IMG/VR virus record: IMGVR_UViG_3300025435_000024
Span: 1-58,057 of that record
Source: a virus
Lineage: Duplodnaviria; Caudoviricetes
Strand: one strand, 5' to 3'
DNA: 58,057 bases
Positions 1-19,178 of the stretch are shown here, piece by piece. The notes below the pieces were generated by a model. The model was given only the letters and a program-made list of their open reading frames with translations. It was not told the DNA's origin and searched no databases. Made by a program: the position numbers and the translations under genes. Each line of letters begins with the position of its first letter. The first letter of the stretch is position 1.

Positions 1-284
1 GTGTTATCCTTACCTTCTGCTTTAGGTTCTTTCTTTTCAGACTTAGCCTCAGGCTTTGGCTTAGATGTTTCCTTACCGCCAGTGTCCTTAATCTCTTTAG
101 GTTCTTTCTTGATAATAGCAGCATTAAACTTGTAGTCTTTAGGCGAATTAAAACCACCAGACTTCATTTCTTTGCCTTCTTTCTTTTCTTCTTTTTTAAT
201 AAGCTTTTTAAATAGCTTCTTATCTTGTGCTTCATCTGAATGAAGTACACCACCAGATTTCAAAAATTTAACAGGACGTGCCAT
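1..284 (-). CDS. N-terminal part of a Lys-rich protein with KxGG motifs; probably continues into 57695-58057 across the window join
   Basis: ATG at 284 with AGGAG RBS. Frame is open to base 1: MARPVKFLKSGG...MKSGG...KAEGKDN. Not in the ORF track because it has no stop. Confidence 0.7.
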   Translation of the reverse strand, partial: MARPVKFLKSGGVLHSDEAQDKKLFKKLIKKEEKKEGKEMKSGGFNSPKDYKFNAAIIKKEPKEIKDTGGKETSKPKPEAKSEKKEPKAEGKDN

Positions 285-294
285 AATTTATCTC

Positions 295-522
295 CTAAAA
301 TTTAATAGAATTAATACAATGATCTTTATTAATTAGATCAAGAAACTTACATAAATAACACGCCCATTTTTCATTATTTTGTTGAGCAAATGCTGCCCTT
401 TGAGATAATGTAATAGGTTGCTTACTACCTAAAAATACAACATTAATAAACCGATCAATTTCAACTAAAACTCTTAACCAATATGGGTGAGGGTCTTGAG
501 GTGGAATTATACTGTCGGCCAT
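295..522 (-). CDS. small tail-region hypothetical protein
   Basis: 75 aa with DRFIN...T(L)SQR...W..LCxxLD...HC pattern; end of the tail-fibre operon. Confidence 0.6.
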   Translation of the reverse strand: MADSIIPPQDPHPYWLRVLVEIDRFINVVFLGSKQPITLSQRAAFAQQNNEKWACYLCKFLDLINKDHCINSIKF

Positions 523-935
523 ACATCTAACACAGCTTGTTTACCATTAGGTAAATAACCAGTTGCATGTAATGCATCTAAACCGTTAGAGGTGAGAGAT
601 GAAGCTTTTTCAATTTCTTTGGCGTATGTAAATTTAAGCCACAGAGAAGCAAGATTTGCATCGTTGTGTGCTGCTACTAACATTGCATCAGTCATGCCAC
701 CAGCGGTTTCACACAAACCTAAGAATTCCAAGGGACTTAAAATTGTTGAACTAGTGCCAGTTGAGGGATCAGGGACAGTTGGTGCAATAAAAGTTACACC
801 ATTGTCTTGTGTTGTCCAACCTATCCATTCACCAGCAGAGGACTGTGGCTGACTAATTTCAGCTTGTAAATCATGTCCCATAGTGACATGAGTTATTACC
901 CCACCATTTATTGAAACATATTTTTGTTCTGTCAT
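507..935 (-). CDS. tail fibre-associated protein
   Basis: Likely start MTEQKY at 935; follows the Gly-rich gene. Confidence 0.5.
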   Translation of the reverse strand: MTEQKYVSINGGVITHVTMGHDLQAEISQPQSSAGEWIGWTTQDNGVTFIAPTVPDPSTGTSSTILSPLEFLGLCETAGGMTDAMLVAAHNDANLASLWLKFTYAKEIEKASSLTSNGLDALHATGYLPNGKQAVLDVWPTV

Positions 936-946
936 ATTTTTAACCT

Positions 947-1774
947 TTACCAAAATATTACGCAGCAACCAGCCGTACCATTACCGCCAGCACCGCCATA
1001 AGCACCGCCACCACCACCGCCAGAACCATATCCAGTACCATTACTTCCATTACTACTAGGACTACCTCCTGTACCGCCTACGCCTAGATAACCAGAACCG
1101 CCACCACCACCTGATCCGCCATAGCTTGAATTACAAGCTACAGAATAAGCTATGCCATTTGATAAAAAGGTTCCAGACCCACTACCAGCATAGCCAGAAT
1201 GACTAGATGTAAAATATATTCCACCACCGCCACCGCCACCGTTAAGCCCAGATTGCGCGTCATTATACGGTGTCGCAGAAGTGCCAAGGATAGCGCCAAG
1301 TCCACCAACCCCTTGTTGAGCAGAACCTCCACGCCCTCCAGCAGCCGTAGAACTACCTCCGTATTGTCCACCTTCACCGCCAGCAGTAGTATATGTAACA
1401 CCACCAACAACTAATGTCGATGATGTTCCATTACTACCAGTAGAACCCGTCGATGCTCCGCCAGCTCCGCCAGCTCCTAGAGTTATTGTTGCAGTGCTTC
1501 CAATATAAATTGGTACTGGTTGCATTGGACAGCCTGAACCGCCGCCACCACCACCAGCGCCAGCAACACCGCTCTGTGTCCCATATCCGCCACCGCCGCC
1601 GCCACCGACAAGTAGTACGTAATAAATACCAGGACCTTTTACATTTGGGTTAATAGAAGTGTTAGATGGATCAAAAGTACCACTAGATGTAAAAGTTGTA
1701 GAATAATTTAAACCTGACAAATATGTGTTGTTTAGTGTACCATTAAGCGGAAATCCAAAAATACCTTGATTCAT
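947..1774 (-). CDS. glycine-rich tail/receptor-binding protein
   Basis: TFTSSGTF...LLVGGGGGGG start, many GGxGG repeats, ends GxxGCCVIFW. Confidence 0.7.
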   Translation of the reverse strand: MNQGIFGFPLNGTLNNTYLSGLNYSTTFTSSGTFDPSNTSINPNVKGPGIYYVLLVGGGGGGGYGTQSGVAGAGGGGGGSGCPMQPVPIYIGSTATITLGAGGAGGASTGSTGSNGTSSTLVVGGVTYTTAGGEGGQYGGSSTAAGGRGGSAQQGVGGLGAILGTSATPYNDAQSGLNGGGGGGGIYFTSSHSGYAGSGSGTFLSNGIAYSVACNSSYGGSGGGGGSGYLGVGGTGGSPSSNGSNGTGYGSGGGGGGAYGGAGGNGTAGCCVIFW

Positions 1775-1789
1775 TTTATAAATTCCCTA

Positions 1790-2179
1790 TTATAGGTCAG
1801 CTGCAAAACATTCCACGTTCCAATTTTCCGTGGTGTAAGCTGATGCATAAAGCGTGTACCCTGTTGGCAACACAAAGTCAGTATAAGTTTTATCAGCTTG
1901 GTAAGATGCAACCGTACTAGAAGGAGTTGTAGAAGTAGTAACAAACTGATCAAACAACTGAGCATTACCAGAACCAGAATAAATCCACAATGAAACTAGG
2001 CTGGCAGCATTGGATGCCGTCGCTTTAATACGTACACGATTAATACGTGTACCATTAGCACCTGCTGCAATAATAGATGTAAGACCAGTAACACCCGTTA
2101 CTGTAAGAGTTGTAACACCTGTTGTTAAGTTACCTACTGCGTAACGTGGTGTTGCTGCATATGCTGGAGCCGTAGCCAT
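1790..2179 (-). CDS. putative virion structural protein
   Basis: 129 aa, Thr/Ala-rich, GGAG RBS, inside the tail-fibre operon. Confidence 0.55.
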   Translation of the reverse strand: MATAPAYAATPRYAVGNLTTGVTTLTVTGVTGLTSIIAAGANGTRINRVRIKATASNAASLVSLWIYSGSGNAQLFDQFVTTSTTPSSTVASYQADKTYTDFVLPTGYTLYASAYTTENWNVECFAADL

Positions 2180-2190
2180 TAATTATCTCC

Positions 2191-4059
2191 TTAGAATAGA
2201 TTATAGTAGTTGAAAGGGTTTGTGCCACTTGTTTGATATGTGGCGTTGAACGATAAATTACCTGAACCATCATTTGTCAAAGCACCAGCAGCATTAGCTG
2301 TAGGTAATGTCATAGAATATGTACCTGCAACAGCCTGTGCCTGAAGTGTAACTGTACCACTTGTTGTACCAGCCAATTTTAAAGAGCCCGTACCAGTACC
2401 AGCTAAACCTGCCGTTAATGTAGTGTTAGCTAATACAGTTGTAAATGAGCCAGCAGCTTTAGTAGTCTGCCCAATAGACACGTTATCAATTGTACCTGCC
2501 GTTGCAGGATTAATCGTAACTACACCTGTACCAGTAGGGCTTATAACTACGTTAGCACTTGCTGGTGACATTGTAACTAAACCACCAGAAGCGGTAAATG
2601 TACCAGATGTTACTGAGGTATTCCCAGTAATTGCAGCACCGCCAGAAGATACCGTAAGTGTTGTTACAGATGGACCAGTGGCAAGTACTATAGAACCAGA
2701 ACCTGTAGTCGTGTTACCTAACACCGTCATAGTGCCAGTAGAAGCAGGTACAGTAATTACAGCAGAACCTAACGCACCAGCGACTGATGACATTGTAATT
2801 GTACCAGATGTTGTATTAGCTAATACAAAAGAACCGTTTGCAGAACCTGCTGTACCTGATTGAAGTACGCCAGATGTAATAACACTTGTACCCGTAGCGG
2901 CACCAATATTAGGTGTAGTAAGAGTTGGTGAAGTAGCTAATACAATAGAACCTGAACCAGTAGCTGTATTACCTAATGCAGTTACTGTACCAGATGTTGC
3001 TGGTAATGTCAATACTGTTGAAGTACCTGCAACAGCACTTGCGATAAGCTGGACAGTACCACTTGTAGCACCATACATAGTAACGGAACCACCAACAGGT
3101 CCAGTAGTTTGTCCAAGAGTTAAAGCACCGTTTGAAATGGTGACGTTAGCATTACCAGATACTGCTGTTGTGCTAGATGCATAGTATGCCATCTGCCCAG
3201 TAACACCAGAGTTGACTGTACCAGACCCAGCAGACACGTTAAGGGTAGAACCTGTAATACTTAAACCAGTACCAAGTGTAATAGCTACAGCAGTACCAGC
3301 ACCGCCTGAACCACCATACAACTGACTTGTTGTAGCACTAGGTAGTGCAGTATTAATATTAGCTGTGGTAGCTAATGTACCACTAGTAGGAAGAGTGACA
3401 CTAGTAGTACCAGATACTGTAAAGGTAGTACCGAATGCACCAGAAATAGTTAAAGTACTAGAAGCATTATTGGCTACACCTGTACCACCTGATGCTGGGC
3501 TTAATGGATTATTTAATACCAACTTTTGTGTATTGTCAAAAGTGGCTGCTTTAGTTAAACTACCATTGTCTGCTTTAGTCCAAATCTGTAACTCCCCACC
3601 AAGATTATTAGTGGTAGAACCAGTTACATAACCTTTAAGAGAAACGTGCTCATTATAAGCAGGAGAAACACCAGAATAGGGCCAAAAGGCAACTTTACCA
3701 ATAACATCCCCAGTGTTAGAAATAACAGGAGAAGACCCAGTACCACGAGAAGTACTGATACTAATGCCAGGAACAGTAGACGAATTAGCGGTATCAGTGA
3801 TTGCACTATTAGGTACATAAGAGTCTAATTCATAATAAATGTTTACAGAGTCTGTACCACTAAAATCACCATTGGTATTAATGCTAAGCCCTTGAGCTAC
3901 AGGCCCACCAGTCTCAGCAGTATTCCAATAGAAATTAGCATTGTTCTGTGCTACAGTAGTAGAACCAGACGCAAATAAAACTGAACCAGCAGTAAGTGGA
4001 GGAGAGCTAGGCGTAATGCCTGAACCACTACCAGCGGCTATGGCACGTAGTAATCCCAT
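2191..4059 (-). CDS. tail fibre protein
   Basis: 622 aa rich in S/T/G, with internal repeats (TLPxTSGT, TGSGSIVLATxP, TSGTxxL). Confidence 0.75.
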   Translation of the reverse strand: MGLLRAIAAGSGSGITPSSPPLTAGSVLFASGSTTVAQNNANFYWNTAETGGPVAQGLSINTNGDFSGTDSVNIYYELDSYVPNSAITDTANSSTVPGISISTSRGTGSSPVISNTGDVIGKVAFWPYSGVSPAYNEHVSLKGYVTGSTTNNLGGELQIWTKADNGSLTKAATFDNTQKLVLNNPLSPASGGTGVANNASSTLTISGAFGTTFTVSGTTSVTLPTSGTLATTANINTALPSATTSQLYGGSGGAGTAVAITLGTGLSITGSTLNVSAGSGTVNSGVTGQMAYYASSTTAVSGNANVTISNGALTLGQTTGPVGGSVTMYGATSGTVQLIASAVAGTSTVLTLPATSGTVTALGNTATGSGSIVLATSPTLTTPNIGAATGTSVITSGVLQSGTAGSANGSFVLANTTSGTITMSSVAGALGSAVITVPASTGTMTVLGNTTTGSGSIVLATGPSVTTLTVSSGGAAITGNTSVTSGTFTASGGLVTMSPASANVVISPTGTGVVTINPATAGTIDNVSIGQTTKAAGSFTTVLANTTLTAGLAGTGTGSLKLAGTTSGTVTLQAQAVAGTYSMTLPTANAAGALTNDGSGNLSFNATYQTSGTNPFNYYNLF

Positions 4060-4268
4060 TAAGCTTCGGTAGGCTCAACAGTGCGAGTATCTGACACTGT
4101 TTCAGTTTCAGCATAATTAGGAACAGATTTCAGTTGAATGTTAGACACATGATTATGTACTTCACTGTATGGACGGTAAGCCAGATACTGCAAAACATTA
4201 TAAAGTGTTTCAGCATCAATGGTATAAGTTACAATATCTTTACCATTATCGTCTTTAATCGAAGCCAT
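4059..4268 (-). CDS. hypothetical protein (possible fibre chaperone)
   Basis: 69 aa, LQYLAYRPYSEV motif; TAATG-coupled to neighbours. Confidence 0.5.
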   Translation of the reverse strand: MASIKDDNGKDIVTYTIDAETLYNVLQYLAYRPYSEVHNHVSNIQLKSVPNYAETETVSDTRTVEPTEA

Positions 4269-4606
4269 TATTGACCAACTCCATATGTAATATTAAGCGT
4301 GGCATTGCCACCAGTCGTGATAGCAGAGAAATATCCACCATACACATCATTGACTAAAAGATATGCTCCAGGAGCTAATTCAATACCGCCATTAACAGTA
4401 TTAGTAGGTACAGCAGCAACTACAGAACTATCTCCAAAAGCAATAAAGATAGGATAAGTATTAGTAGTAGGACTAAATAACAGTAGTGATTCAATATTTA
4501 CTGGAGAATAAGAAGGATAAGCTGTAGCACTAAGTGCGCTAGTTGTAATTGTATACTTACGAGTACTATTAGCAGCACATGGTGAGAAGTTAGCAATAGT
4601 AGCCAT
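4268..4606 (-). CDS. putative virion structural protein
   Basis: 112 aa, beta-rich; translationally coupled. Confidence 0.55.
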   Translation of the reverse strand: MATIANFSPCAANSTRKYTITTSALSATAYPSYSPVNIESLLLFSPTTNTYPIFIAFGDSSVVAAVPTNTVNGGIELAPGAYLLVNDVYGGYFSAITTGGNATLNITYGVGQ

Positions 4607-4947
4607 TACACTAACACCACATAAGCGCCTGTAGTTGTACCATCAGCACTGGCTACAAAACACCTCACATAAGGAGCAAGGCAATCAAATGCCAAAGCTA
4701 CCTGAGTCGTATTAGGAGATATCGCAGATGTAATTGTAGCAGTCATATCCTGCCATAGCGTACCGTCAGGACTACCTTGCACCTTCACAGTAAATTGCGT
4801 ACCACTTGTCGTCCAAGCCATTAAAGCCCTACGAGTCGTACCAGCAATATTACGTGGATTAGAAATTGTGCTACCAGCACCATTAGCAGCAGTACCGTTT
4901 GTGGAAGGTAAAAGCACTAATGGTTGGACTGCTTCTGATGCAGACAT
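4606..4947 (-). CDS. putative virion structural protein
   Basis: 113 aa with VQGSPDGTxW and APYVR motifs; AGGAG RBS; first gene after the leftward promoter. Confidence 0.6.
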   Translation of the reverse strand: MSASEAVQPLVLLPSTNGTAANGAGSTISNPRNIAGTTRRALMAWTTSGTQFTVKVQGSPDGTLWQDMTATITSAISPNTTQVALAFDCLAPYVRCFVASADGTTTGAYVVLV

Positions 4948-4973
4948 AGTTACTCCTTGTGGGATGAAACAAT

Positions 4974-5002
4974 AGTATATGTGTAAAAAAAGTGTAAGTC
5001 AA
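4974..5002 (-). promoter_or_regulatory. sigma70-like promoter for the tail-fibre operon
   Basis: TTGACT-17 bp-TATACT on the - strand. Confidence 0.75.
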
Positions 5003-5015
5003 GTATTATTTTTGA

Positions 5016-5044
5016 TTGACATTTAAATGATTTTGATATAGTAT
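5016..5044 (+). promoter_or_regulatory. sigma70-like promoter pointing into the structured non-coding region
   Basis: TTGACA-17 bp-TAGTAT; shares TATAGTATATT with the promoter at 49390-49418. Confidence 0.65.
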
Positions 5045-5049
5045 ATTCT

Positions 5050-5505
5050 GGTGATGGAAGTGATGACTCCATCTAGGAACTCTATTGGCTACCTCAGCCC
5101 GCAACAAACGCATATCAGGTTTAAAGACCCATATTGCAGCGTGTTCCGTCCAAAGCCCCACTTTAAGGATTAGGGGGTAAGAGTAGGCTCTGTGACGAAC
5201 CACAACCTACAAGTTCTACACGGTTTCTTAGCAGCTGTGTAGACTGCGTTGTATAGGTGATGAGATACATAGATACTGAACCGGACTTAAGTACCCAAAT
5301 TCTTTAGTTCAGTCTATGTAGCAGGAGACAGCACAACCTCCCTCCATGATGCTACTAGGGCTATATAGACTGGAATGCCCCATCATGTCTCTGCTAAGCT
5401 CTATTCGTGTGGCTCCAGACTTCAAGGGCTATCGGATACATCTAGTCTACTACAGGCTAGGTGTATCCGGTACACCACCTTCAAGCTCCGCAGGAATGGC
5501 TACGC
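5050..5505 (+). ncRNA. candidate large structured ncRNA (A)
   Basis: No credible ORF. Tiled stems include 5183-87/5206-10, 5215-24/5234-43, 5266-81/5307-20, 5345-51/5381-87 and 5431-48/5454-71 (18 bp, 3 G.U). Wobbles are valid only on the + strand. Confidence 0.55.
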
Positions 5506-5520
5506 AAATAGATATATAAT

Positions 5521-5540
5521 ATATTAATATATATTAATAT
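5521..5540. repeat. perfect 20-bp AT-only palindrome
   Basis: ATATTAATATATATTAATAT. Confidence 0.9.
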
Positions 5541-6119
5541 GGGTAGCGAATCTTTAAAAAACTAATAAAAACAATAACTTAATAAAACTATATTTGTAGC
5601 TACAAACAACATGATACCAGAATATTTATTGTTACAGGTCTAAATTGTATAAAAATTATAATAGCTTAGCATGTTTTTGCTAGGCTATTTTTTTATGTTT
5701 GTTTGATACTGTTGTAAATGATAAGCTATATTGTGGTACTTTATAAGTGATATACTACATGAAGTATGTGTATGTATGTTATTGTTACTGTTGTGTTTTT
5801 GGTAATTTATAGCAGTGACATATATACATATATATCAACGCTCAGTCCCCAGCCTACCCCCCTCTACAGCTATACAGCTAACCATACATACATATAACTG
5901 TATATACAGCGATACAAACAGAGAACAAATATTGAATGATATTCGTTTCATTCATTCTGCATTGTTTAATGATTAATGATTTGTCATTACCATTTCATTG
6001 CTGTGTCAGTATGTCGCATAGGGCTATAAAGCCATTTAAAAGGCCGTACAGGGCTATTTGACAGATTATGGCACTACGCCCTATAAATCTGTCCACATAA
6101 GTCAACCAATGAAATCAAT

Positions 6120-6169
6120 ATGTTAGCCCTTAACTGGCTACAAAATGTTAGCCCTTAACTGGCTACAAA
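6120..6169. repeat. exact 25-bp tandem duplication
   Basis: ATGTTAGCCCTTAACTGGCTACAAA twice, with no spacer. Confidence 0.95.
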
Positions 6170-6457
6170 GTGGACATTTTGTCTACAAATAACATATCAA
6201 ATCCTGGCATAAATCATGCATAACCAAATAAAGGTTAATAATACCCGGACAATATTCATGCAGCATATACCAGTCATATCTAGGTGATATGTAGCACATA
6301 TGGCACAATTCTTACTCATACGCAGACACGCGCTTATCCACTATTCGCGGGTATAGGGAATTAGAATAACTCTAAACTAGACGGCCTGATAGAAACTGTG
6401 GCAAATATAACACAAGTGCGACGGACTGCCGCACCCTCACATTTTTCAAAAATATCG

Positions 6458-6486
6458 CTAGACATTCCAAAATCATGGGCCTATAC
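6458..6486 (+). promoter_or_regulatory. probable early promoter (alphaproteobacterial RpoD-like)
   Basis: CTAGAC-17 bp-CTATAC resembles CTTGAC-N17-CTATAT; the first hairpin starts at about the predicted +1 (6494). Confidence 0.5.
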
Positions 6487-6493
6487 CTTGTCC

Positions 6494-6967
6494 ATCGAAG
6501 GCGAACACAACGGCTTGGGGGCCTATCCCACCCTCCCTTCGATTAGATGATCCTCGTCTAGCTAGTGCAAAATAACGCACAATAACATGGCTAGGGCAGG
6601 CACTCTCTAGCGGTCACGGTGAAGGTATGCGAAGGCATACAGGCACTAAGCAAGCCGCCCCTCTCCACAAGTGAGAGTGTAAACAACCAGAAACCGGCGA
6701 AATATGGCACGGTTCAATCTGGTTGGTCCTAGTATAACTCCCTATGATTGGATATGCACACGCACCTCTTAGCTTAGCCATACCGACTCGGTGAAGGATA
6801 AGTGTTCTCCTGCCCCTATCTTCTAATTTGGAGCCAAGCTAGAGACAAAACATTAAACCGATTAGGCTGGCCTGACACTCTGGCCTAATCAATCAATCAA
6901 TACTTACTAAGCACTAGTCACTGTGACAATTAAATCACAGATTGGCTAGTGCTTCCTTGTGTTGATT
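6494..6967 (+). ncRNA. candidate large structured RNA / early leader (B)
   Basis: Stems 6494-6501/6536-43, 6601-07/6673-79, GTATGC-GAAG-GCATAC at 6625-40, 6684-91/6718-25, 6860-70/6880-90 and 6909-20/6943-54; G.U pairs favour the + strand. Confidence 0.55.
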
Positions 6968-6998
6968 ACGTCTTAACCTTAACTCTTGGAGAATTGCT

Positions 6999-7226
6999 AT
7001 GAGCGCACAACAATTGACTGAAAAGAAAACGTATCTGGTTCGTTACTTGTCAAAAGCGGGTAAAGGTGGCGATGCTACCACATTCCGCTACACTGAAATT
7101 CAAGCCAAGAATATTGAGCAGGCTAAACTTAAGGCTGAAATGCTTATGGATGATAAGGATTGCTTCACCTATGATGTGATTGATCCTATCGTATTGCATA
7201 GCGTAACAGCGGGAGTAAAAGCATAA
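6999..7226 (+). CDS. early hypothetical protein
   Basis: 75 aa, GGAG RBS, first + strand gene. Confidence 0.7.
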   Translation: MSAQQLTEKKTYLVRYLSKAGKGGDATTFRYTEIQAKNIEQAKLKAEMLMDDKDCFTYDVIDPIVLHSVTAGVKA

Positions 7227-7301
7227 CTAATAGTTACTCTTTCAAAGCCTAGTAAATGCCATGCTAGGCTTATATGGACTAACTAAACCAGGACTATTGC
7301 T

Positions 7302-7508
7302 ATGTCTTACACCACAACTAACTTTAAAACCAAGAAAGCAATCAAGGAGGCCATTGTTTCTGGTAAACGTATCACTTGCTTTAATCCGGGCATGGGTACT
7401 TGTCCTGATAATGGTACAATATACCTTGAAGGACCGCATTATCCTGAACCGCATAAATGGTACGCTCAAGGTGTAATGAAAGACGGATTGCTTGTATCAA
7501 TCAAATGA
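7302..7508 (+). CDS. early hypothetical protein
   Basis: 68 aa, NFKTKK...EGPHYPEPHKWYA; AGGA RBS. Confidence 0.7.
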   Translation: MSYTTTNFKTKKAIKEAIVSGKRITCFNPGMGTCPDNGTIYLEGPHYPEPHKWYAQGVMKDGLLVSIK

Positions 7509-7519
7509 GGAGAAGTATC

Positions 7520-7705
7520 ATGTCTATGTCTAAGAAAGACTTTGAAGCTATTGCTAGTGCATTTAAAGCTGAACATACGTATGCTAAAAAGTATGGTGTT
7601 CAGCCTTCACTAGAAGTATTGTCTGCTAGACTAGCAACATACTTTCAACAGTGTAATCCTCGCTTTGATGACTCTAAGTTTATCATTGCTTGTATGGGAG
7701 ACTAA
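7520..7705 (+). CDS. early hypothetical protein
   Basis: MSMSKKDFEAIA...NPRFD..KF..AC pattern; AGGAG RBS before 7520. Confidence 0.7.
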   Translation: MSMSKKDFEAIASAFKAEHTYAKKYGVQPSLEVLSARLATYFQQCNPRFDDSKFIIACMGD

Positions 7706-7707
7706 TC

Positions 7708-7899
7708 ATGATTACTTGCGGAACAATCTTAGAACAAATGTGGTCTATAGATTACGTCACTAAACAAGGCGTTGATATAGATCATGAATTAAATATGTTG
7801 ATGTATCGCATGGTAAGAGAACTTGCACTAGATAATTACCCTTTGATATTTAAAACCCTCGCTCGTCATGAACATGACACTACCCCTAACCTAGCATAG
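7708..7899 (+). CDS. early hypothetical protein
   Basis: GGAG RBS; coupled ORF. Confidence 0.5.
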   Translation: MITCGTILEQMWSIDYVTKQGVDIDHELNMLMYRMVRELALDNYPLIFKTLARHEHDTTPNLA

Positions 7900-7906
7900 G
7901 TGAACC

Positions 7907-8107
7907 ATGACTGACACTTACTCACTAACACTAACAGCCACTACTCGTAATGGCATCGAGCTAAAGCAATTGCGTTTGGATAATGCTTTGTCTAAACAAG
8001 TATTAGACTTGCAAGCTGAGCCATTGTTTAATGAATTGCGTACACTATATCCTAATGGATATGTGTTTCGTAAATATGAAACTAACCGAGTCAACAAAAC
8101 AATCTAA
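7907..8107 (+). CDS. early hypothetical protein
   Basis: 66 aa, AGGT RBS. Confidence 0.55.
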   Translation: MTDTYSLTLTATTRNGIELKQLRLDNALSKQVLDLQAEPLFNELRTLYPNGYVFRKYETNRVNKTI

Positions 8108-8119
8108 GGAGATTGTATC

Positions 8120-8260
8120 ATGTACACTGAATTGATTAAGTGTATTGAACACTATGTCAATTGGCATAGGCATAATGTATCACTACTTCAACACGAGTAT
8201 CAGTATGCGTTTGATTTGTCTTTGAACTATATCAATCAGTATAACTGGAGCAAGGTGTAA
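8120..8260 (+). CDS. small early protein (46 aa)
   Basis: AGGAG RBS; MYTELIKCIEH...WSKV; below the ORF-track cutoff. Confidence 0.5.
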   Translation: MYTELIKCIEHYVNWHRHNVSLLQHEYQYAFDLSLNYINQYNWSKV

Positions 8261-8261
8261 C

Positions 8262-8372
8262 ATGACTAATAACCAGGTTACTAATCATAGACCTATTGAC
8301 TATGTAATAGATGCTATAGCATTAGCATTGTTTATATTCATGGTCTACTCATGGAGCATTGCATTGACATGA
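8262..8372 (+). CDS. small membrane peptide (36 aa)
   Basis: MTNNQ...IALALFIFMVYSWSIALT; ATGA overlap with the next gene. Confidence 0.45.
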   Translation: MTNNQVTNHRPIDYVIDAIALALFIFMVYSWSIALT

Positions 8373-9022
8373 CTACATACTACCACTTCACACCTAAGTC
8401 TAGTAATGCTAAGACTGGACCTATACCAGTTACTACTACGTCACGTAATAGTTGTCCTGATACTTGTGCATTCAAGAACAATGGATGCTATGCTGAGTCA
8501 GGACCATTGCGTATACATTGGAATAAAGTAAGTGATGGTTCTAGGAGTATTACATTGGAGCAATTGCTTGGTCATATACAATCATTACCTACGGGTGCAT
8601 TATGGAGACATAACCAAGCCGGGGATGTATCTGAACAGGATGTAATTAACATTGCTATTGCTAATGTAGGGCGTAAAGGTTTTACATATACTCATAACCA
8701 TTCATTGCTTATGGGTCGTAAGATTAAAGAATGTAATGCTTATGGGTTCACTGTAAACCTTAGTGCCAATAACTTAGAACATGCTGACAAGTTACTTGAC
8801 CTTAACATTGGTCCAGTATGTAGCGTAGTACCATCAGACTATCATGTGCACGGTGGCATGACGCCTAAAGGACGCAGAGTTAAAGTATGTCCTGCCACAC
8901 AATTAGATCATGTCAATTGTGCTAATTGTGGTCTATGTCAGATTGCTAATCGAGATTATGTTATTGCTTTTCCTGCACATGGTACGGGTAAGCGCAAAGC
9001 TAATGGAGTGGCTAATGGTTGA
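8369..9022 (+). CDS. Gp88-like / DUF7227-like Cys-rich phage protein
   Basis: SSNAKTGPIP, CPxxC...CYA, RHNQAGD, FTYTH, CP...CxxCxxC...FPAHG. Confidence 0.6.
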   Translation: MTTYYHFTPKSSNAKTGPIPVTTTSRNSCPDTCAFKNNGCYAESGPLRIHWNKVSDGSRSITLEQLLGHIQSLPTGALWRHNQAGDVSEQDVINIAIANVGRKGFTYTHNHSLLMGRKIKECNAYGFTVNLSANNLEHADKLLDLNIGPVCSVVPSDYHVHGGMTPKGRRVKVCPATQLDHVNCANCGLCQIANRDYVIAFPAHGTGKRKANGVANG

Positions 9023-9200
9023 TGCACACTTTGATGATGACTATGCTGATTACAAATCAAATATTGTAAGTGATCAGTGTGAAACTTGTAGTAAAATATT
9101 TCAGTATGAATTAGACTTTGCTTATGAACATCTAATCAGAGACACAAATACTAATGAATTAGTAACTTGCTGTCATGATTGCTTAAACCAGGACTATTAA
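9015..9200 (+). CDS. small Zn-finger-like protein
   Basis: CETC...CCHDC; GGAG RBS before MVDAHF. Confidence 0.5.
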   Translation: MVDAHFDDDYADYKSNIVSDQCETCSKIFQYELDFAYEHLIRDTNTNELVTCCHDCLNQDY

Positions 9201-9201
9201 C

Positions 9202-9399
9202 ATGATTACTGTATATAAAATAATCAATCGTGGCTTTAGTACAGACATTGTACTTCATGCAGATACTCTTGTAGAAATTCAAGAATACAAAAAACCTAAT
9301 CTAAAAGATTGGGGATACTCTCCATCATACGGACCAACTATTAAACTACCTGATGGTAAGTTTGAGTTTACTCGTAATGTTTATAACTCTTGTGATTAA
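9202..9399 (+). CDS. early hypothetical protein
   Basis: 65 aa with RBS. Confidence 0.55.
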   Translation: MITVYKIINRGFSTDIVLHADTLVEIQEYKKPNLKDWGYSPSYGPTIKLPDGKFEFTRNVYNSCD

Positions 9400-9410
9400 A
9401 GGATATTAAC

Positions 9411-9629
9411 ATGTCTATGTGTTTATGTAGTTTCTGTGATAACTTTGTAGACAGTGATGATTATATGGATTGTTGGGTAGTAAACTATGAATGGCTACCT
9501 AAAGTAACTAATGTAATTGGTAAAGATGTAATCTGTGAAACCTGTTTGCATGATTATGAGATTGAGTATGATGCGTTTTTAGATTGGGAAGAAGAAAAGA
9601 CTAACTTGCAACAAGAGGAGATTAAGTGA
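9411..9629 (+). CDS. small Zn-finger-like protein
   Basis: CSFC...CETC; acidic. Confidence 0.55.
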   Translation: MSMCLCSFCDNFVDSDDYMDCWVVNYEWLPKVTNVIGKDVICETCLHDYEIEYDAFLDWEEEKTNLQQEEIK

Positions 9630-9913
9630 TGAGTGTATTTCTTAAAACAATTGAATTAGATAATGATCCTATCCCGTATGCTAAAGTCGGACAATGGGTC
9701 CGGGATAAATCTAAAGGGAAGGGACGTATAGTTGCTAATCGCAATGGACGTATCTATGTCTCTTGGTTAAAGGGTGACAAGTTTAAGCATTACAATAATC
9801 GTTTTGCTAAGGCTTGCTGGTATCAACGTGGTGGTGATGTAGGTGAGAAGATTAAGACTGCACCATTGTCACTTACTATTTATTCACTCAAGAAGCGGTT
9901 AGGAATGATCTGA
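9626..9913 (+). CDS. hypothetical protein
   Basis: 95 aa, GAGGAG RBS. Confidence 0.55.
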   Translation: MMSVFLKTIELDNDPIPYAKVGQWVRDKSKGKGRIVANRNGRIYVSWLKGDKFKHYNNRFAKACWYQRGGDVGEKIKTAPLSLTIYSLKKRLGMI

Positions 9914-10122
9914 TGTGGCTCAGGCTTATTAAGTTACTTAGTCCACCTAGTGATACTGGTACGTATAGGTATCTATATGTTAATCAGTATCGTGGGCATA
10001 AAGTACCTGAACACTTTACATACTCTATGTTCTATACCTGGTATGCAGCTAAAGCTCATGCTAAGTGTAGTAAACGATTTGTAAAGACTCATTATGTAGC
10101 CATTCAACCTAAAGAAGTTTAA
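9913..10122 (+). CDS. hypothetical protein
   Basis: Coupled ORF, 69 aa. Confidence 0.45.
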   Translation: MWLRLIKLLSPPSDTGTYRYLYVNQYRGHKVPEHFTYSMFYTWYAAKAHAKCSKRFVKTHYVAIQPKEV

Positions 10123-10123
10123 C

Positions 10124-10366
10124 ATGCAAATGGAAATTAAATCACGCTATGACAATAAGCTAAATGTATGGGCATTGTTTCCACATTTAGATGATGACCC
10201 TGAAACTAATGATGAGCTGTTGCGTCAGGCATCATTTGTATATGATCATTGGCTTGGACAATTTGGTATTGTTCAATCCACTTGGCAAGTGGTTGATGTA
10301 ATCGACAAGCATGATAAGAATGCTTTGCGCTATTACATGGATCAAGGTGCAACTCTTATTCAATAG
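10124..10366 (+). CDS. hypothetical protein
   Basis: 80 aa in the operon. Confidence 0.5.
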   Translation: MQMEIKSRYDNKLNVWALFPHLDDDPETNDELLRQASFVYDHWLGQFGIVQSTWQVVDVIDKHDKNALRYYMDQGATLIQ

Positions 10367-10377
10367 GACTATCACAA

Positions 10378-10653
10378 ATGCGTGTGCTGGTGGCTTGTGA
10401 ATATAGCGGGGAGGTCAGGGATGCCTTCCTCGCTAAAGGACATGATGCAATGTCATGTGATCTATTACCAACTGATGTACCTGGACCACATTATCAAGGT
10501 GATGTGTTTGACATTATTGATGATGGTTGGGACTTAATGATTGCCTTTCCACCATGTACACATCTATGTGTAAGTGGTGCTAGGTGGTTTAAGAATAAAG
10601 TAAAAGAGCAGCTAGAGCAGGATTACCTTGTGACATTACAGCAGAGGATATAA
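10378..10653 (+). pseudogene. truncated phage DNA cytosine methyltransferase (N-terminal part only)
   Basis: MRVLVACEYSG...SCD...GD...DLMIAFPPCT, with the catalytic PC. Resemblance stops at KVKEQ (~10611) and the ENP motif is missing. Confidence 0.7.
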
Positions 10654-10898
10654 AAATTCCTGAGTATTGCCCGGTGTTAGGTATAAAATTACACAAGGCA
10701 GTAGGTGTGTTTGCACACCACTCTCCGTCATTGGATAGAGTTGTACCTAATTTAGGATATGTAAAAGGAAATGTACACGTCATATCTTGGAGAGCTAACA
10801 GTCTCAAAAAGAATGCTACGATTGAAGAACTTGAAAAAATCATACAGTATATGAAGGAACATATTAATGATACTAGCAGGAGCGAACAGACAGATTGA
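10599..10898 (+). pseudogene. C-terminal fragment of an HNH-like homing endonuclease
   Basis: Open frame from 10599: KRAARAGLPCDITAEDIKIPEYCPVLG...SPSLDRVVPNLGYVKGNVHVISWRANSLK. Paralog of 14635-15186 lacking the N-terminus. Confidence 0.75.
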
Positions 10899-12855
10899 AC
10901 GTAGCGATGCGTTTGTATCTAACACATTCAACATTAGTGCTGGAGCGAAAGCATTCGAGGTGCTTAGCTCTGGTATCTATTCTAACAAACCCGCAGCAGT
11001 AGTCCGTGAGACACTGTGTAATGCTGTTGATAGCCATAAGGAACAAGGTAATGCTAGCACTCCAATACTTCTGCATTGTCCTAATCGCCTTGAACCTTGG
11101 TTCTCTGTACGTGATTATGGTACAGGGATGTCACACGAAAAGGTTACTAACTTATACTCTACCTATTTTGGTTCAGATAAGTCAAATAGTAATCTGGGCA
11201 TTGGTGGCTTTGGTCTAGGTTCTAAAGCACCACTATCATATGTAGATAGCTTCACTGTTACTGTATGGCATGGCAACAAGAAGCGTGTGTATAATGTATT
11301 TAAGAATGAGGATGCTATTCCTGAGATTGCTTTATTACATGAACAAGATAGCATTGAGCCTGTAGGTGTAGAGGTTAAAGTACCTGTAAAGACACAAGAT
11401 ATTGATGACTTTATTCGTCAGATCACTATATATACCAGGTATGCTACTATACCTGTTGAGTGTGTTGGTGCTAAGATTACGCATAATAAGCGTAACTATA
11501 TCTATGAAGGTTCAATTTGTAAGGTGCATGATGAAGGTCATTGGAATGATCATACCATTACGTTTGTAGTTGGTGGTGTACCTTACGAGCATTCGCATTC
11601 AGAAATTATTAATCTAAGTATCACATTACCTGAATGCAGTCTAGAAATGCACCTACCTATTGGTAGTGTAGAAATTGCTGCCAGCCGTGAGAAGATTAGT
11701 GCTAAGCCAACTACCATTAAGTACATTCAATCTGTTATTGATGCTGAACGTGCTACTGCTAGTAAAGCTATCAACAATCAAGTATTGAATGCAGATACAT
11801 ACAAAGATGCTTTGAATATTATTGTAGACAAAAGCACTAAGTGGATTAAGTTTGATTGTAAATGGTTAGATAAGAATACTGGCATTACTCATAATCTTGA
11901 AAGAGATAAGGTATACCAGAGTGATGGATTCCATGTACACTACATGGAAGACAATCTAAACCTTATATCAGAGCGCTATAGTAAGAATCGAATACGTTTA
12001 AACTTTACTGAATCGCCTGTAGTTATTCTTGTAGATGTTAGTACGAACTGGAGAGCTAAGGTTCGTCAGTATGGTAAACCTTGTTGGGTTGTGAATAAGG
12101 TTATTGCTTATTGGCAGGATGCTGTTTGGGATAAGGTTGTATCCGATAATACACATCGTGTTACATTTCTTAAGATTTCTGAGTTACCTTACATTAAGAC
12201 TGATATTACTAAGAACTCAGCTAGGGCTAATACAATTACTGTATGGGACCATAGTAAGAAAGATGTTAATTTAACAGAAATTACTGATCCTTTGCATGTA
12301 TTTGTAGGTACAGTCAAAGACCTTAAGTATACCTACATTAATTATAAAGAAGTGTTTGGCGTTAGAGCTGGTATCATTACATATGTTCAATATCGTAAAG
12401 CGTTGAACATTAACCCTGATATGATTATCAATGCTATAGATAATCTTGAAGAGTTCTGTAAAGATACTGAGGATAACAAAGATTTTATTAATTGGCTTTC
12501 AACAGTGAAAGGAGAAACACCTTATATTGCATATGGAGTTAGAAGGGGTATAGACAAACTAAATAAGACATACAAGTGCAAATGGACTGATGAATTATAT
12601 ATGTTTGCTAATGACCATGAGTCAGCAGATTATATGTTTGCAAAGGATTGTATATATAGGTACAATGTTGCCTGTGATTTATTGAGTCGTGAAAAGCAGT
12701 CAAATATTAAATTGTCATCGGCCAAAAGTTGGCCTAGTAAGTACGAGTGGATACCTGAATCGGTATTGAAAATGCTTGGTGACTCATACGACATTCATGA
12801 AACAAAGAAGTTAGTTGAATTATTAAACAGCGGTGCAAAGGAGCACGGACTATGA
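10867..12855 (+). CDS. rIIA: rIIA-like protein (GHKL/Hsp90-type ATPase N-domain)
   Basis: IYSNK..AVVRETLCNAVDS, RDYGTGMS, GGFGLGSK, GVEVKVPV; ATGA-coupled to rIIB. Confidence 0.8.
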   Translation: MILAGANRQIERSDAFVSNTFNISAGAKAFEVLSSGIYSNKPAAVVRETLCNAVDSHKEQGNASTPILLHCPNRLEPWFSVRDYGTGMSHEKVTNLYSTYFGSDKSNSNLGIGGFGLGSKAPLSYVDSFTVTVWHGNKKRVYNVFKNEDAIPEIALLHEQDSIEPVGVEVKVPVKTQDIDDFIRQITIYTRYATIPVECVGAKITHNKRNYIYEGSICKVHDEGHWNDHTITFVVGGVPYEHSHSEIINLSITLPECSLEMHLPIGSVEIAASREKISAKPTTIKYIQSVIDAERATASKAINNQVLNADTYKDALNIIVDKSTKWIKFDCKWLDKNTGITHNLERDKVYQSDGFHVHYMEDNLNLISERYSKNRIRLNFTESPVVILVDVSTNWRAKVRQYGKPCWVVNKVIAYWQDAVWDKVVSDNTHRVTFLKISELPYIKTDITKNSARANTITVWDHSKKDVNLTEITDPLHVFVGTVKDLKYTYINYKEVFGVRAGIITYVQYRKALNINPDMIINAIDNLEEFCKDTEDNKDFINWLSTVKGETPYIAYGVRRGIDKLNKTYKCKWTDELYMFANDHESADYMFAKDCIYRYNVACDLLSREKQSNIKLSSAKSWPSKYEWIPESVLKMLGDSYDIHETKKLVELLNSGAKEHGL

Positions 12856-13688
12856 CAATGTTATCTTTTATTAAAACTGGTGAATCAGTTACAGTGTACC
12901 TGGATGGTGAAGCTACTACAGTTGATAGCAGCCATCCTAACTATTTAAAATTGCTTGATGCTTTGCGTTCCAAAGACATTGCAGACATTAAGGCTAATAT
13001 GGATATTGGTTCAGCAGTCAAGGCTTATGTTGGCACTGGTCGTGCCTATCTTATGAATGGTGTTGTGTACTATGACGATGCACCTGTTCAAGGTGTTATC
13101 GTTGATCGTATCATGACCATGATGACTGAAGGCTTTGATGTTCAACCTATGTTGAATTTCTTGGCTAAGGTATATGATAATCCTTCTAACTCTGCCATTG
13201 AAGAAACATATCTGTTCATGGAACATAATGATCTTACGTTGCATGAAGATGGTGATCTGATTGCATATAAAGGTGTCACAGAAGATTACAAGGATTGTCA
13301 TACCAAGAAAATTGACAATCGAGTTGGCTGTGAAGTCTCTATGGATCGTCGTAAGGTAGATGATCGGCGTCATGTTACTTGTTCACATGGTCTACACGTT
13401 GCCAGCCTTGAGTATGCTCTAGGGTTTGGTAGCAAGACTGTTGTGGTCAAGGTTAATCCTCGTGACATCGTTTCTATTCCAAACGACTATCATAACCAGA
13501 AGGCCAGGGTATGTCGTTATGTCGTGGTGGACGAGCTTAAGTCTAACCAACGCTATTCAGATAAGTCTGTAGTGTCTGATGATGAATTGGGTCGGGAATC
13601 AAATGATGATGGTGATGAATATGAAGTTGAAGAAGTTACTGTTAAGTATCACAACAAGCGTGATGCTTTAGGTCGTTTCACTAACTAG
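12852..13688 (+). CDS. rIIB: rIIB-like protein
   Basis: NPS...LF...DG.LIAYKGV, VSMDRRKVDD...TCSHGLHV, KVNPRDIVSIPNDY..QKARVCRY. Confidence 0.85.
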   Translation: MTMLSFIKTGESVTVYLDGEATTVDSSHPNYLKLLDALRSKDIADIKANMDIGSAVKAYVGTGRAYLMNGVVYYDDAPVQGVIVDRIMTMMTEGFDVQPMLNFLAKVYDNPSNSAIEETYLFMEHNDLTLHEDGDLIAYKGVTEDYKDCHTKKIDNRVGCEVSMDRRKVDDRRHVTCSHGLHVASLEYALGFGSKTVVVKVNPRDIVSIPNDYHNQKARVCRYVVVDELKSNQRYSDKSVVSDDELGRESNDDGDEYEVEEVTVKYHNKRDALGRFTN

Positions 13689-13699
13689 TATATAACTAT

Positions 13700-13742
13700 G
13701 TCGTTGTTCGGGTACATTGTTATAGTGTACTCGAATGACGAC
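13700..13742 (+). other. 20-bp RNA hairpin (RNase III-like processing site or terminator)
   Basis: GTCGTTGTTCGGGTACATTG pairs with TAGTGTACTCGAATGACGAC; every imperfection is a G.U wobble. Confidence 0.6.
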
Positions 13743-13766
13743 TATTGCATATAGGAAAGTTAAGTG

Positions 13767-13886
13767 ATGTTAGAACTATTAATTATTTGTGGGTTTGTTA
13801 TTTTGTTTAGTTTAAGCTGTGCTGTAGGAGCAGCGTTAAGTATTGTAGTATTTAATTTTTTAGTTAAAAAGTTTTATATTGAATGA
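13767..13886 (+). CDS. small membrane protein (39 aa)
   Basis: MLELLIICGFVILFSLSCAVGAALSIVVFNFLVKK. Confidence 0.4.
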   Translation: MLELLIICGFVILFSLSCAVGAALSIVVFNFLVKKFYIE

Positions 13887-14062
13887 CTGACATATCAGTC
13901 TTTCTAAAAATGCTTAATCCAAGCCCTGAACAAATCCGAGAATTTATGGAGTATGAAAATGTCAGACGAAAACAGCAATCAACTACCCCCACAAATGCCA
14001 CAGGATGGCTCAGGAAGCCCGGTAAGCCAATTTCAGGTGCAAGGTATAGGGAAGGGTATTGA
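13883..14062 (+). CDS. hypothetical protein (59 aa)
   Basis: ATGA-coupled; MTDISVFLKMLNPSPEQIREFMEYE. Confidence 0.4.
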   Translation: MTDISVFLKMLNPSPEQIREFMEYENVRRKQQSTTPTNATGWLRKPGKPISGARYREGY

Positions 14063-14199
14063 AATGGCCTCAGTGACTAAATTTTCAGATAAGGGATACT
14101 CCAAACTCTTTCGTAACTTTTTTGATGGTTGTTTGCAGAAAGGGGATTGACTTTCTCCAAAAGTATGCTATAAAAATTATATGTGCGAGACAAGAGTAT

Positions 14200-14580
14200 A
14201 TGATATTTAAAATTAAAAAACATAATAAGAAAATATATATAGAAATAAATATAGAAGATAATACTAATACTATTAATGCAAATAGTATAGAACAACTAAT
14301 ATTTTTGTTTTTTAAAACATATATACCTGATACTCCTAATAAAATTATACAAGATGTAATATCTTATAGTTCTTATATTGCAAATAGAAGTTTTTATTCC
14401 ACAAAAGAATTAGGTAATTCTATAAATTATAATCAACATAAAAAGCAAAATGAAGTTATAGCTAAAAACATAAAGACTAATATATTAACATGTATGACTG
14501 GAACTTTAAAGTTCTCTCCATATCAAATTAAAAAAGTTAATGCTTTATTCAAAGCTATAGAAGATTTTTGTTCCGTATAA
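14200..14580 (+). CDS. very AT-rich hypothetical protein
   Basis: In-frame ATG at 14200; rich in I/K/N. Confidence 0.4.
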   Translation: MIFKIKKHNKKIYIEINIEDNTNTINANSIEQLIFLFFKTYIPDTPNKIIQDVISYSSYIANRSFYSTKELGNSINYNQHKKQNEVIAKNIKTNILTCMTGTLKFSPYQIKKVNALFKAIEDFCSV

Positions 14581-14586
14581 AAACTA

Positions 14587-14615
14587 TTGACAAGAGTTAT
14601 AAAAAAGAATAATAT
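14587..14615 (+). promoter_or_regulatory. sigma70-like promoter of the HNH gene
   Basis: TTGACA-17 bp-TAATAT. Confidence 0.55.
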
Positions 14616-14634
14616 AATTCTTTTGGAGGATTAT

Positions 14635-15186
14635 ATGGAAAAAATTTGCACTCAGTGTTTTACGTTGAAGCCTTTAGTAGATTTTTATACTGATAAAAAA
14701 AGTAAAGATAAAAGGGCGAGTATGTGTAAAGCCTGCAAAAAGCAATCTGTTAGGGAATATTATGCACTTTCGCCCGAAGAAAAAGTTATAAAAAAACAAA
14801 ACAGAAAAGTGCGAACTGAAGAAGATAAAAAAGAATATAGTAGAAAATACGCAGCTAACAAACGTGAAAATAAAGCTGAATTAAATATGCTAATAAATAC
14901 AAAGGCAAGAGCAAAGTCTAAAGGATTAAATTTTAATTTAGACATTGGTGATATAAAAATACCTTCGTACTGTCCTGTGCTAGGTATACCATTAGAAATA
15001 GGTTTTAAGAAACCAACAGATAACTCTCCTACACTTGATAGGATAGTTCCTGTTCTAGGTTATACAAAAGGCAATGTAATGGTTATTTCACACAAAGCTA
15101 ATAGAATTAAAAATAGCGCAAGTGTAAAAGATTTAGAGAAAATATTAAAATTTCTAAAGAAAAAGTTAGGAATGCTGGATGATTAA
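14635..15186 (+). CDS. free-standing HNH-like homing endonuclease (intact)
   Basis: GGAGG RBS; CxxC...CKAC Zn finger; CPVLG...SPTLDRIVP..GY.KGNV.VIS.KAN.IK. Confidence 0.8.
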   Translation: MEKICTQCFTLKPLVDFYTDKKSKDKRASMCKACKKQSVREYYALSPEEKVIKKQNRKVRTEEDKKEYSRKYAANKRENKAELNMLINTKARAKSKGLNFNLDIGDIKIPSYCPVLGIPLEIGFKKPTDNSPTLDRIVPVLGYTKGNVMVISHKANRIKNSASVKDLEKILKFLKKKLGMLDD

Positions 15187-15409
15187 ACTAATAGGATTCA
15201 TTAGCATAGTATGTAATATGGCTGTTGCAGATTTGAATACTTATCACAATGTGTATAATATTCCGAATAGTAAATGTCATACCCTTATGATGGATGGATT
15301 TGTTTCTGTACAACATTGTAAAGATTATCAAGCTATACTGAATACTATTCTGGAGGATAATGAGTTCATCCTGGATTACAAATGTCATATGTATGAATAC
15401 AAGGCTTGA
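15179..15409 (+). CDS. hypothetical protein
   Basis: 76 aa, coupled. Confidence 0.45.
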   Translation: MIKLIGFISIVCNMAVADLNTYHNVYNIPNSKCHTLMMDGFVSVQHCKDYQAILNTILEDNEFILDYKCHMYEYKA

Positions 15410-15411
15410 CA

Positions 15412-15588
15412 ATGGGTAAGCATTTCAATAAAGATACTGTTGCGGAAGTGTTAGCATTTTTTCAGGATGGGTATAGCGAAAAACATATTGCATCTGTGAT
15501 GCACATGAGTTATAAGGATATTCGGATAATCCTGCGGGATTACAAAGGTAAAGAAATTATTATAGAACGGGAGTTTGATGATGAGTAA
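15412..15588 (+). CDS. small HTH-like protein
   Basis: FQDGYSEKHIASVMHMSYKDIRIIL. Confidence 0.5.
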   Translation: MGKHFNKDTVAEVLAFFQDGYSEKHIASVMHMSYKDIRIILRDYKGKEIIIEREFDDE

Positions 15589-15823
15589 GTTTATTTCAAT
15601 TGGTAATTATGTAGTTAATACGGACGAAGTTATTCTGGTTAGTTATTTTCCTGAAGAGGAGCAGCTACAGATTACTTTAGCCAGTGCCCCTTATTTCACT
15701 ACTAAGGCTACTCGTATTCAGTTCAACACATTGCTTAATAAGCTAAATGCTGTGGAGATTCCTGATGAATCTGATGGATCAATCCCTAAGTTTACTGGGA
15801 CTAAAGCACCACCTAAGAACTGA
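15578..15823 (+). CDS. hypothetical protein
   Basis: FISIGNYVVNTDEV; GGAG RBS. Confidence 0.55.
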   Translation: MMSKFISIGNYVVNTDEVILVSYFPEEEQLQITLASAPYFTTKATRIQFNTLLNKLNAVEIPDESDGSIPKFTGTKAPPKN

Positions 15824-18939: not shown

Positions 18940-19178
18940 GCATCAACAGTCCATTTGATCTAGTCAAAGATCAGCTTGACAATCTTCACTCTCAGGTTAA
19001 GATTGCCAAGGATATTATTGCAGAACAGAATAAGAAAATTGATGGTTTGAATACTGCTATTGCAGATTATACAAAAGCTATTGACGAACTACGCTTTCTT
19101 GGTGTAGGTAATAAGAACTATGGGGTGAATACCCAAACAGAGAAACCTATTGAAACTGGAAGGAGTATGGGTCGATGA
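18936..19178 (+). CDS. coiled-coil hypothetical protein
   Basis: AGGAG RBS, heptad pattern. Confidence 0.55.
   Translation: MSINSPFDLVKDQLDNLHSQVKIAKDIIAEQNKKIDGLNTAIADYTKAIDELRFLGVGNKNYGVNTQTEKPIETGRSMGR

Follow-up and report, generated by a model that had tools for sequence, protein, structure and literature searches.

A candidate structured 5′ leader upstream of the early operon of an HMO-2011-type podophage

Introduction

What is the function, if there is one, of a long folded stretch without genes that directly precedes the first early gene of a tightly packed phage genome? This question is raised by positions 6458-6998 of a virus whose complete record, with a length of 58,057 bp, is the window analyzed here. 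The initial annotation had described the region as a structured RNA forming the leader of the early transcript and had suggested that it acts as an antiterminator or as a processed non-coding RNA.

The portal protein of the virus is 50-58% identical to those of the Roseobacter phages CRP-345 and CRP-1, the Puniceispirillum phage HMO-2011 and related phages. Together with the SU10-type portal and adaptor, a family A DNA polymerase and further genes (ThyX, a class II ribonucleotide reductase with an intein, rIIA/rIIB-like genes) this identifies the phage as an HMO-2011-type podophage. It is contained in 23 sequencing runs from freshwater DNA metagenomes, with no RNA run among those listed. The cultured relatives all infect Alphaproteobacteria; the nearest bacterial-genome relatives of the DUF7227 gene are mostly Burkholderiales.

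Results

Gene layout

Minus-strand genes occupy positions 1-4947 and 34460-58057, plus-strand genes positions 6999-34343, and the blocks diverge outwards from a single gene-free gap of 2.05 kb, of which the region 6458-6998 forms the right quarter (Table 1). The coordinates bear out the plus-strand block of 27 kb noted in the initial annotation. Its remark that no RNA polymerase gene is present agrees with several searches, although the control of one of them matched nowhere, so that this search is weak when taken alone. As neither a phage RNA polymerase nor a sigma factor was found among the genome's genes, host-type promoters are expected. For the first early ORF no relative was found in viral or metagenome contigs and no PHROG was assigned; none of the early ORFs has a family, and no N-like protein was found among them.

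Table 1 Features of the gene-free gap and of the region at its right end. Structures are predicted for the strand given.
Feature	Position	Strand	Remarks
Whole gene-free gap	4948-6998		ORF lists; between divergent gene blocks
Promoter-like motif CTAGAC-N17-CTATAC	6458-6486	+	alternative reading TAGACA-17-TATACC
Module 1, two abutting hairpins plus a small hairpin	6494-6543, 6544-6560; 6565-6580	+	pair probabilities 0.90-0.99
Module 2, three-way junction	6590-6733	+	144 nt
Unstructured linker	6736-6856	+	C > G (A35 C32 G22 T32)
Module 3, hairpin with 11-bp stem and 9-nt loop	6860-6890	+	pair probability 0.97
Module 3, interrupted duplex, candidate RNase III-type site	6895-6967	+	pair probabilities 0.96-0.99
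GGAG ribosome-binding site	6988-6991	+	ahead of first early ORF
First early ORF, 75 aa	6999-7226	+	ATG at 6999

Some other features of the genome were recorded in passing. At 10867-13688, behind the small early ORFs, lie an rIIA-like gene (662 aa), for which no relative was found in viral contigs, and an rIIB-like gene (278 aa). The ribonucleotide reductase ORF at 28006-31863 (1285 aa) contains a LAGLIDADG homing-endonuclease domain, while the match to intein splicing was weak and below threshold. Furthermore, a group I intron was found on the minus strand at 48101-48388 (Rfam 86.9 bits, E 8e-21), just upstream of the major head protein ORF at 47154-47987, which covers positions 60-323 of 410 of its PHROG profile; the intron probably splits the capsid gene.

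The gene-free gap

Between 5204 and 6998 there is no ORF of at least 60 aa in any of the six frames, which makes this the only such stretch of at least 500 bp in the genome. By the same 60-aa ORF rule the longest ORF-free stretch of this kind in relatives amounted to 1,053 bp (165 loci). The GC content of the region is 47%, compared with about 40% for the genome. A decayed gene was considered and rejected: 78 stop-to-stop frames of at least 18 aa gave no similarity in a tblastn search against the relatives (best E 0.089). The short ORFs inside the region (20-55 aa) were discarded as well, none having a convincing ribosome-binding site as judged by reading the sequence. The genes flanking the gap are orphans among the relatives: the 22 nearby ORFs include three with clear homologs (DUF7227, a 68-aa ORF and 56515-56886) and one with a weak match.

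The left and middle parts of the gap contain features of their own. Two promoter-like sites lie back to back at 5002-4974 (TTGACT-17-TATACT, minus strand) and 5016-5044 (TTGACA-17-TAGTAT, plus strand). The latter is followed by ~640 nt without a gene and then by a terminator at 5660-5695 (12-bp stem and a run of seven T, T7), the only strong plus-strand terminator in the first 36 kb. At 5404-5551, between this promoter-like site and the terminator, structure is stronger than in any other window of the genome (z -8.95), with a 19-bp hairpin at 5430-5472. The stretch 4974-5695 is a candidate for a non-coding RNA gene of its own or for an attenuated leader. Further to the right there are an AT-rich segment near 5500-5830 with a GC fraction of about 0.25 and a tandem 25-bp direct repeat at 6116-6165, whose copies are 96% identical and each carry a small hairpin. 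The sequence AGGGCTAT occurs four times in the gap and six times genome-wide (2.15 expected). An origin or a set of regulator binding sites is possible for 5500-6350; DnaA boxes were rejected as a sign of an origin, with one of 31 one-mismatch matches falling in the gap and no concentration there.

Predicted fold of the region

Three modules were predicted for the plus strand (Table 1), whose MFE structures make up 0.21-0.37 of the respective ensembles. For the first (6492-6582) a folding energy of -28.1 kcal/mol was obtained (z -2.95, one of 200 shuffles as good), compared with a z of -0.02 for the minus strand. The three-way junction is closed by an outer stem, GCUAGGGC/GUCCUAGU, at 6590-6597/6726-6733 and a second stem, GCACUCUC/GAGAGUGU, at 6600-6607/6673-6680, and its arms extend over 6600-6680 and 6684-6725, the former ending in a GAAG-capped hairpin. 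Both closing stems of the multibranch domain had been named in the initial annotation, and they were recovered in the MFE structure of 6588-6735 alone and in that of 6440-7040; within the longer sequence the pair probability was 0.60 for the second stem and below 0.5 for the outer one. The GAAG-capped hairpin, which had been described likewise, was located at 6625-6640 as GUAUGC-GAAG-GCAUAC (P 0.95). As an isolated domain 6588-6735 reached -61.7 kcal/mol (z -5.04, none of 200 shuffles as good, MFE frequency 0.21) on the plus strand and -53.0 kcal/mol (z -3.15) on the minus strand.

The statement that nearly the whole span folds proved wrong for the linker at 6736-6856, which is no better than its shuffles on either strand (z +0.30 on the plus, -0.46 on the minus strand). 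The long interrupted duplex ahead of the first ribosome-binding site is present as claimed and ends 31 nt before the ATG. Counted from its base, it has helices of 9, 12 and 6 bp, 27 bp in all; a 5x4 internal loop separates the first two, a 2-nt bulge the last two, and the loop at the tip has 8 nt. No T run follows the duplex. Together the two 3′ hairpins (6856-6970) gave a z of -8.48 on the plus strand, with none of 200 shuffles as good, and of -5.52 on the minus strand. Strong hairpins did not recur at the other gene junctions that were folded; 7225-7305 has a 10-bp stem with a z of -2.76.

Comparison with shuffled sequences and with the genome

Taken as a whole, 6494-6998 folds with -168.8 kcal/mol on the plus strand (z -5.33, none of 100 dinucleotide shuffles as good) and with -164.8 kcal/mol on the minus strand (z -2.13). 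A comparison with windows of the same genome upholds the signal, at a less dramatic level than the shuffles do: among GC-corrected 505-nt windows the region ranks second of 227, at only -2.06 sd. The most stable plus-strand window of this kind is the coding window 10289-10793 (-2.81 sd), which includes a 213-bp non-coding stretch (10654-10866) ahead of the rIIA-like gene.

In a scan of 391 windows of 148 nt with 40 shuffles each (genome mean z -0.67, sd 1.37), 6588-6735 ranked second with a z of -5.86, in a grid registered on 6588 and hence favoring this window. The first rank was taken by 5404-5551, likewise within the gap, and the fifth by 6884-7031. Three of the five most structured windows are thus located in the 2-kb gap, for which a chance of about 3e-4 was estimated when the registration of the grid on 6588 is ignored. 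With 80-nt windows on the plus strand, 5421-5500 came first and 6891-6970 third (-33.7 kcal/mol; mean -14.0, sd 4.8). From the ranks at both window lengths we concluded that the gap is strongly enriched in exceptional local structure.

Strand preference

In every module the plus strand has the lower folding energy, by 3-9 kcal/mol. The modules contain 2, 5 and 4 G-U pairs (11 in total), and on transfer to the minus strand their helices lose 4, 18 and 13 kcal/mol, the junction then being left with -43.6 kcal/mol. For the region as a whole the MFEs of the two strands are close, and the G-U pairs (15 of 154) are not more frequent than in coding windows (mean 0.14); part of the difference in z between the strands must consequently originate from the backgrounds. 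With DNA parameters the junction showed no strand preference (z -3.51 and -3.71) and was ill-defined, with an MFE frequency of 0.002, and the 3′ hairpins folded well with these parameters, too (z -6.75 and -4.79). Taken together with the promoter-like and terminator-like sites described below, whose arrangement agrees with rightward transcription, we regard these predictions as moderate evidence for a plus-strand RNA that would run into the first gene.

Promoter-like and terminator-like sites

The promoter proposed in the initial annotation was confirmed as a motif, CTAGAC-N17-CTATAC, but it was not called by an E. coli-type scan. In the alternative reading (Table 1) the -10 element differs from the E. 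coli consensus in its last position, which is not T. The sigma-70 consensus of Sinorhizobium meliloti is CTTGAC-N17-CTATAT (PMC2873474), and the motif agrees with it at 10 of 12 positions with exact spacing, the consensus being alphaproteobacterial and possibly not that of the host. Matches to this consensus are not enriched genome-wide: six with at most two mismatches were counted against 7.67 expected, and promoter-like matches are at or below chance. Two of the six fall in the gap and each of them faces its own gene block (5003-4975 on the minus strand, 6458-6486 on the plus strand). The first stem begins at 6494 and thereby close to the presumed +1, as had been remarked.

Other candidate plus-strand promoters are found upstream, namely the site at 5016-5044 and a further one at 5703-5732, so a longer leader is possible, of which the region would be the distal part. 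No plus-strand terminator-like site was found between 5690 and 7400 and no minus-strand promoter-like site in 5000-7400. The hairpin at 6414-6436 was considered as a terminator in front of the promoter and dismissed: since it is weak on the plus strand (-6.4 kcal/mol, z 0.27), it does not bound the plus-strand unit. On the minus strand, where it reaches -16.5 kcal/mol, this terminator-like hairpin might end transcription that runs leftward, short of the middle of the gap.

Search for homologs and the gaps of relatives

The initial annotation had proposed a check against Rfam, and no family match was obtained for the region. At gathering thresholds Rfam 15 returned only the group I intron and a tRNA for the whole window; for 5000-7300, searched at E up to 10, ten matches were found, all of them to eukaryotic snoRNA, miRNA or lncRNA models and far under the threshold (best E 0.65). 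No DNA match was detected in the phage database in distant mode, and an exact 23-nt pattern was not found in viral contigs. Searches of 351 loci with 5200-7000 or 4948-7000 by blastn and nhmmer gave chance matches only (best E 0.55 and 0.69), and a single-sequence covariance model of the three-way junction produced just two chance matches in 299 loci (E 5 and 5.8). With DUF7227, the portal and the 68-aa ORF as queries, only relatives of at most 70% identity were retrieved, and their gaps are unrelated. The whole case rests on a single sequence, with no homolog in the collections searched.

The gaps of the relatives (CRP-345, HMO-2011, Manatee Spring phage and IMG/VR contigs) occupy the same position, between the outward late and early blocks and upstream of DUF7227. 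With 0.5-1.5 kb they are shorter than the gap described here, and they match it neither in sequence nor in structure; the Manatee Spring record has about 1.5 kb without genes if the tiny called ORFs of 110-204 bp are disregarded. In a noisy scan with only 30 shuffles per window, the gaps of 11 relatives were mostly unstructured: 8 of 98 windows had a z of -3.6 or below and none of -5.9 or below, compared with 9 of 391 windows at -3.6 or below in the present genome. A long structured leader is consequently not a trait of the group. Eight loci of CRP-345-like relatives share strongly conserved non-coding blocks in the equivalent gap. One block of ~70 nt contains GTTAACAC...CCTAATCTGTGTATTT, and another is the palindromic CAACTG-N9-CAGTTG. 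For the ~70-nt block the best match in the window, at 5820-5861, was not significant (E 1.6), and none was located in 6458-6998.

Discussion

A proposed structured leader with a candidate processing site

The reading that we prefer, tentatively but as one that may well be correct, is that of a lineage-specific structured 5′ leader of the early operon, in which the 27-bp duplex would serve as an RNase III-type processing or stability site. It is the best supported reading because the region is gene-free, lies upstream of the first plus-strand gene with no plus-strand terminator before it, and folds better on the plus strand. The structured leader of the initial annotation is thus partly supported: the analysis shows that genes are lacking and that stems are predicted beyond chance and with a bias to the plus strand, whereas transcription and its start, cleavage by RNase III and any role of the junction are inferred. 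With no homologs, orphan neighbors and a gap unlike those of the relatives, the leader would be specific to this lineage and located in the fastest-evolving part of the genome.

The rightward early operon would be transcribed by the host RNA polymerase, in a phage that has no polymerase of its own, and transcription might start at the weak promoter at 6458-6486 (+1 near 6494) or upstream of it, 5703-5732 being one promoter-like candidate. Three modules are predicted for the growing transcript: the two abutting 5′ hairpins, the 144-nt three-way junction and the two 3′ hairpins. The last hairpin may serve as the RNase III sites do in the early RNA of T7. Cleavage would release a stable structured leader RNA of ~450 nt and set the 5′ end of the mRNA; left uncleaved, the duplex could protect this end. 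Furthermore, the heavy structure may keep Rho off the untranslated stretch of 500 nt.

RNase III sites of the T7 type are duplexes of about two helical turns or more that are interrupted by an internal loop. The predicted duplex has at least about two turns and an internal loop, and it would lie in untranslated RNA beside the coding start. The early leader at the left end of T7, also a podophage, is comparable in several respects: a leading region of ~1 kb without genes contains host-type promoters, in the present phage promoter-like sites, and in both phages a long duplex with an internal loop is found a few tens of nucleotides before the first early gene (gene 0.3 in T7). In contrast to T7, the present phage has no polymerase of its own and an additional 144-nt junction, the other junctions between genes that were folded here gave no duplex of this kind, and there is no relation in sequence or family. 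The leader of lambda N (nutL and an RNase III site) and that of rRNA operons (boxB-boxA-boxC and an RNase III helix) are likewise long and untranslated. In each of them a signal in the RNA addresses the polymerase, and an RNase III duplex is present close to where the first coding or functional region begins. Unlike these two leaders, the present region contains no boxA that could be clearly recognized on reading the sequence, and no N-like protein was found among the early ORFs.

Alternative explanations

That the region is a fast-evolving spacer without function, its structure being an accident of composition or a remnant of decayed sequence, is unlikely. Such a spacer would agree with the orphan genes on both sides, with the failure to find a homolog of the gap in the collections searched, with the modest deviation from other 505-nt windows and with the quarter of the region that is unstructured. 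However, in a genome with the tight packing usual for phages, no other long gene-free stretch exists; in addition, three of the five top 148-nt windows lie in the gap, and z values go down to -8.5, unequaled by any of 200 shuffles. Somewhat less probable again is an element that acts as DNA, with palindromes for replication, packaging, DNA entry or protein binding, or with hairpins in single-stranded DNA. It would be modeled on T5 and T7, whose leading ends have non-coding regions rich in repeats. The gap resembles the "injection stop" region of T5, which extends over more than 1.5 kb without genes, is rich in repeats and palindromes and lies at a boundary of gene blocks. The AT-rich stretch, the 25-bp tandem repeat and the several promoter-like sites of the gap fit such an element, as do the short DNA-like blocks conserved in the gaps of relatives (with the non-significant match at 5820-5861) and the 3′ hairpins, which fold on the minus strand and with DNA parameters. 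The T5 element acts as DNA, whereas the helices found here favor one strand under RNA rules in all three modules, and the junction is ill-defined as DNA. Moreover, operators for dimeric proteins do not look like these helices with their G-U pairs, bulges and internal loops, and the repeats and the AT-rich part are outside 6458-6998. For roles at the DNA level, such as an origin, DNA entry or packaging, the left and middle parts of the gap are better candidates than this region.

Two further explanations also assume an RNA. A stand-alone RNA acting in trans, in which the junction with or without its flanking hairpins would be cut out and serve, for example, as a decoy or protein sponge, appears improbable. 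It would profit from a junction that is self-contained and very well-defined, from the processing-type duplex downstream of it and from a second candidate RNA unit in the gap, 5051-5695, which is bounded by a promoter and a terminator. Against it, the region has no intrinsic terminator of its own, no homolog, no family match and no evident target, the longest complementarities inside the gap being 17-19 nt at 76-79%. Very improbable is a cis-acting antiterminator RNA of the HK022 put type, a nascent leader that would bind the host polymerase and let it read through terminators or resist Rho over the 27-kb block. The put sites putL and putR of HK022 follow the promoter directly and form a pair of neighboring stem-loops in the nascent RNA. 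In the present case the abutting hairpins at 6494-6543 and 6544-6560 would be in the corresponding place if transcription starts at the presumed +1; they are specific to the plus strand, with a z of only -2.95 for their module. Neither a polymerase nor a sigma factor was found in the phage, whose plus-strand genes form one long block, and an untranslated RNA of 500 nt with more C than G would otherwise invite Rho. The region is, however, seven times longer than a put site and matched no RNA family. Plus-strand terminator-like sites occur at chance level and have poor T tails (12 vs 11.0 expected in 1-20000, 13 vs 9.2 in 20001-36000); the only strong one, at 5660-5695, lies upstream of the region, and none in 6999-34343 is strong. 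Since intrinsic terminators in the plus-strand block are not above chance, this reading is weakened, and the antiterminator of the initial annotation, in which only the two hairpins at the presumed +1 are reminiscent of put, would survive only as a protection against Rho.

Significance

HMO-2011-type phages form one of the most abundant phage groups in aquatic habitats and have no RNA polymerase gene. In those papers on this group that a word search covered, promoters, noncoding regions and terminal repeats are not mentioned. It is a long shot that the leader, perhaps together with the plus-strand unit 5051-5695, represents a new class of large structured phage RNA that reprograms or shields the host transcription complex. 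If this were true, a 27-kb early operon would be driven from one promoter region by antitermination or by blocking of Rho, in a podophage without a polymerase, a sigma factor or a recognizable antiterminator protein of its own. If the region is not an RNA, the gap still marks the control hub of the genome, as its only gene-free region and the site of three of its five most structured windows. If, instead, the structured leader that we prefer is a working RNA, it would offer an entry point to the control and stabilization of early transcripts by host enzymes only, and the orphan 144-nt three-way junction would join the short list of large structured phage RNAs.
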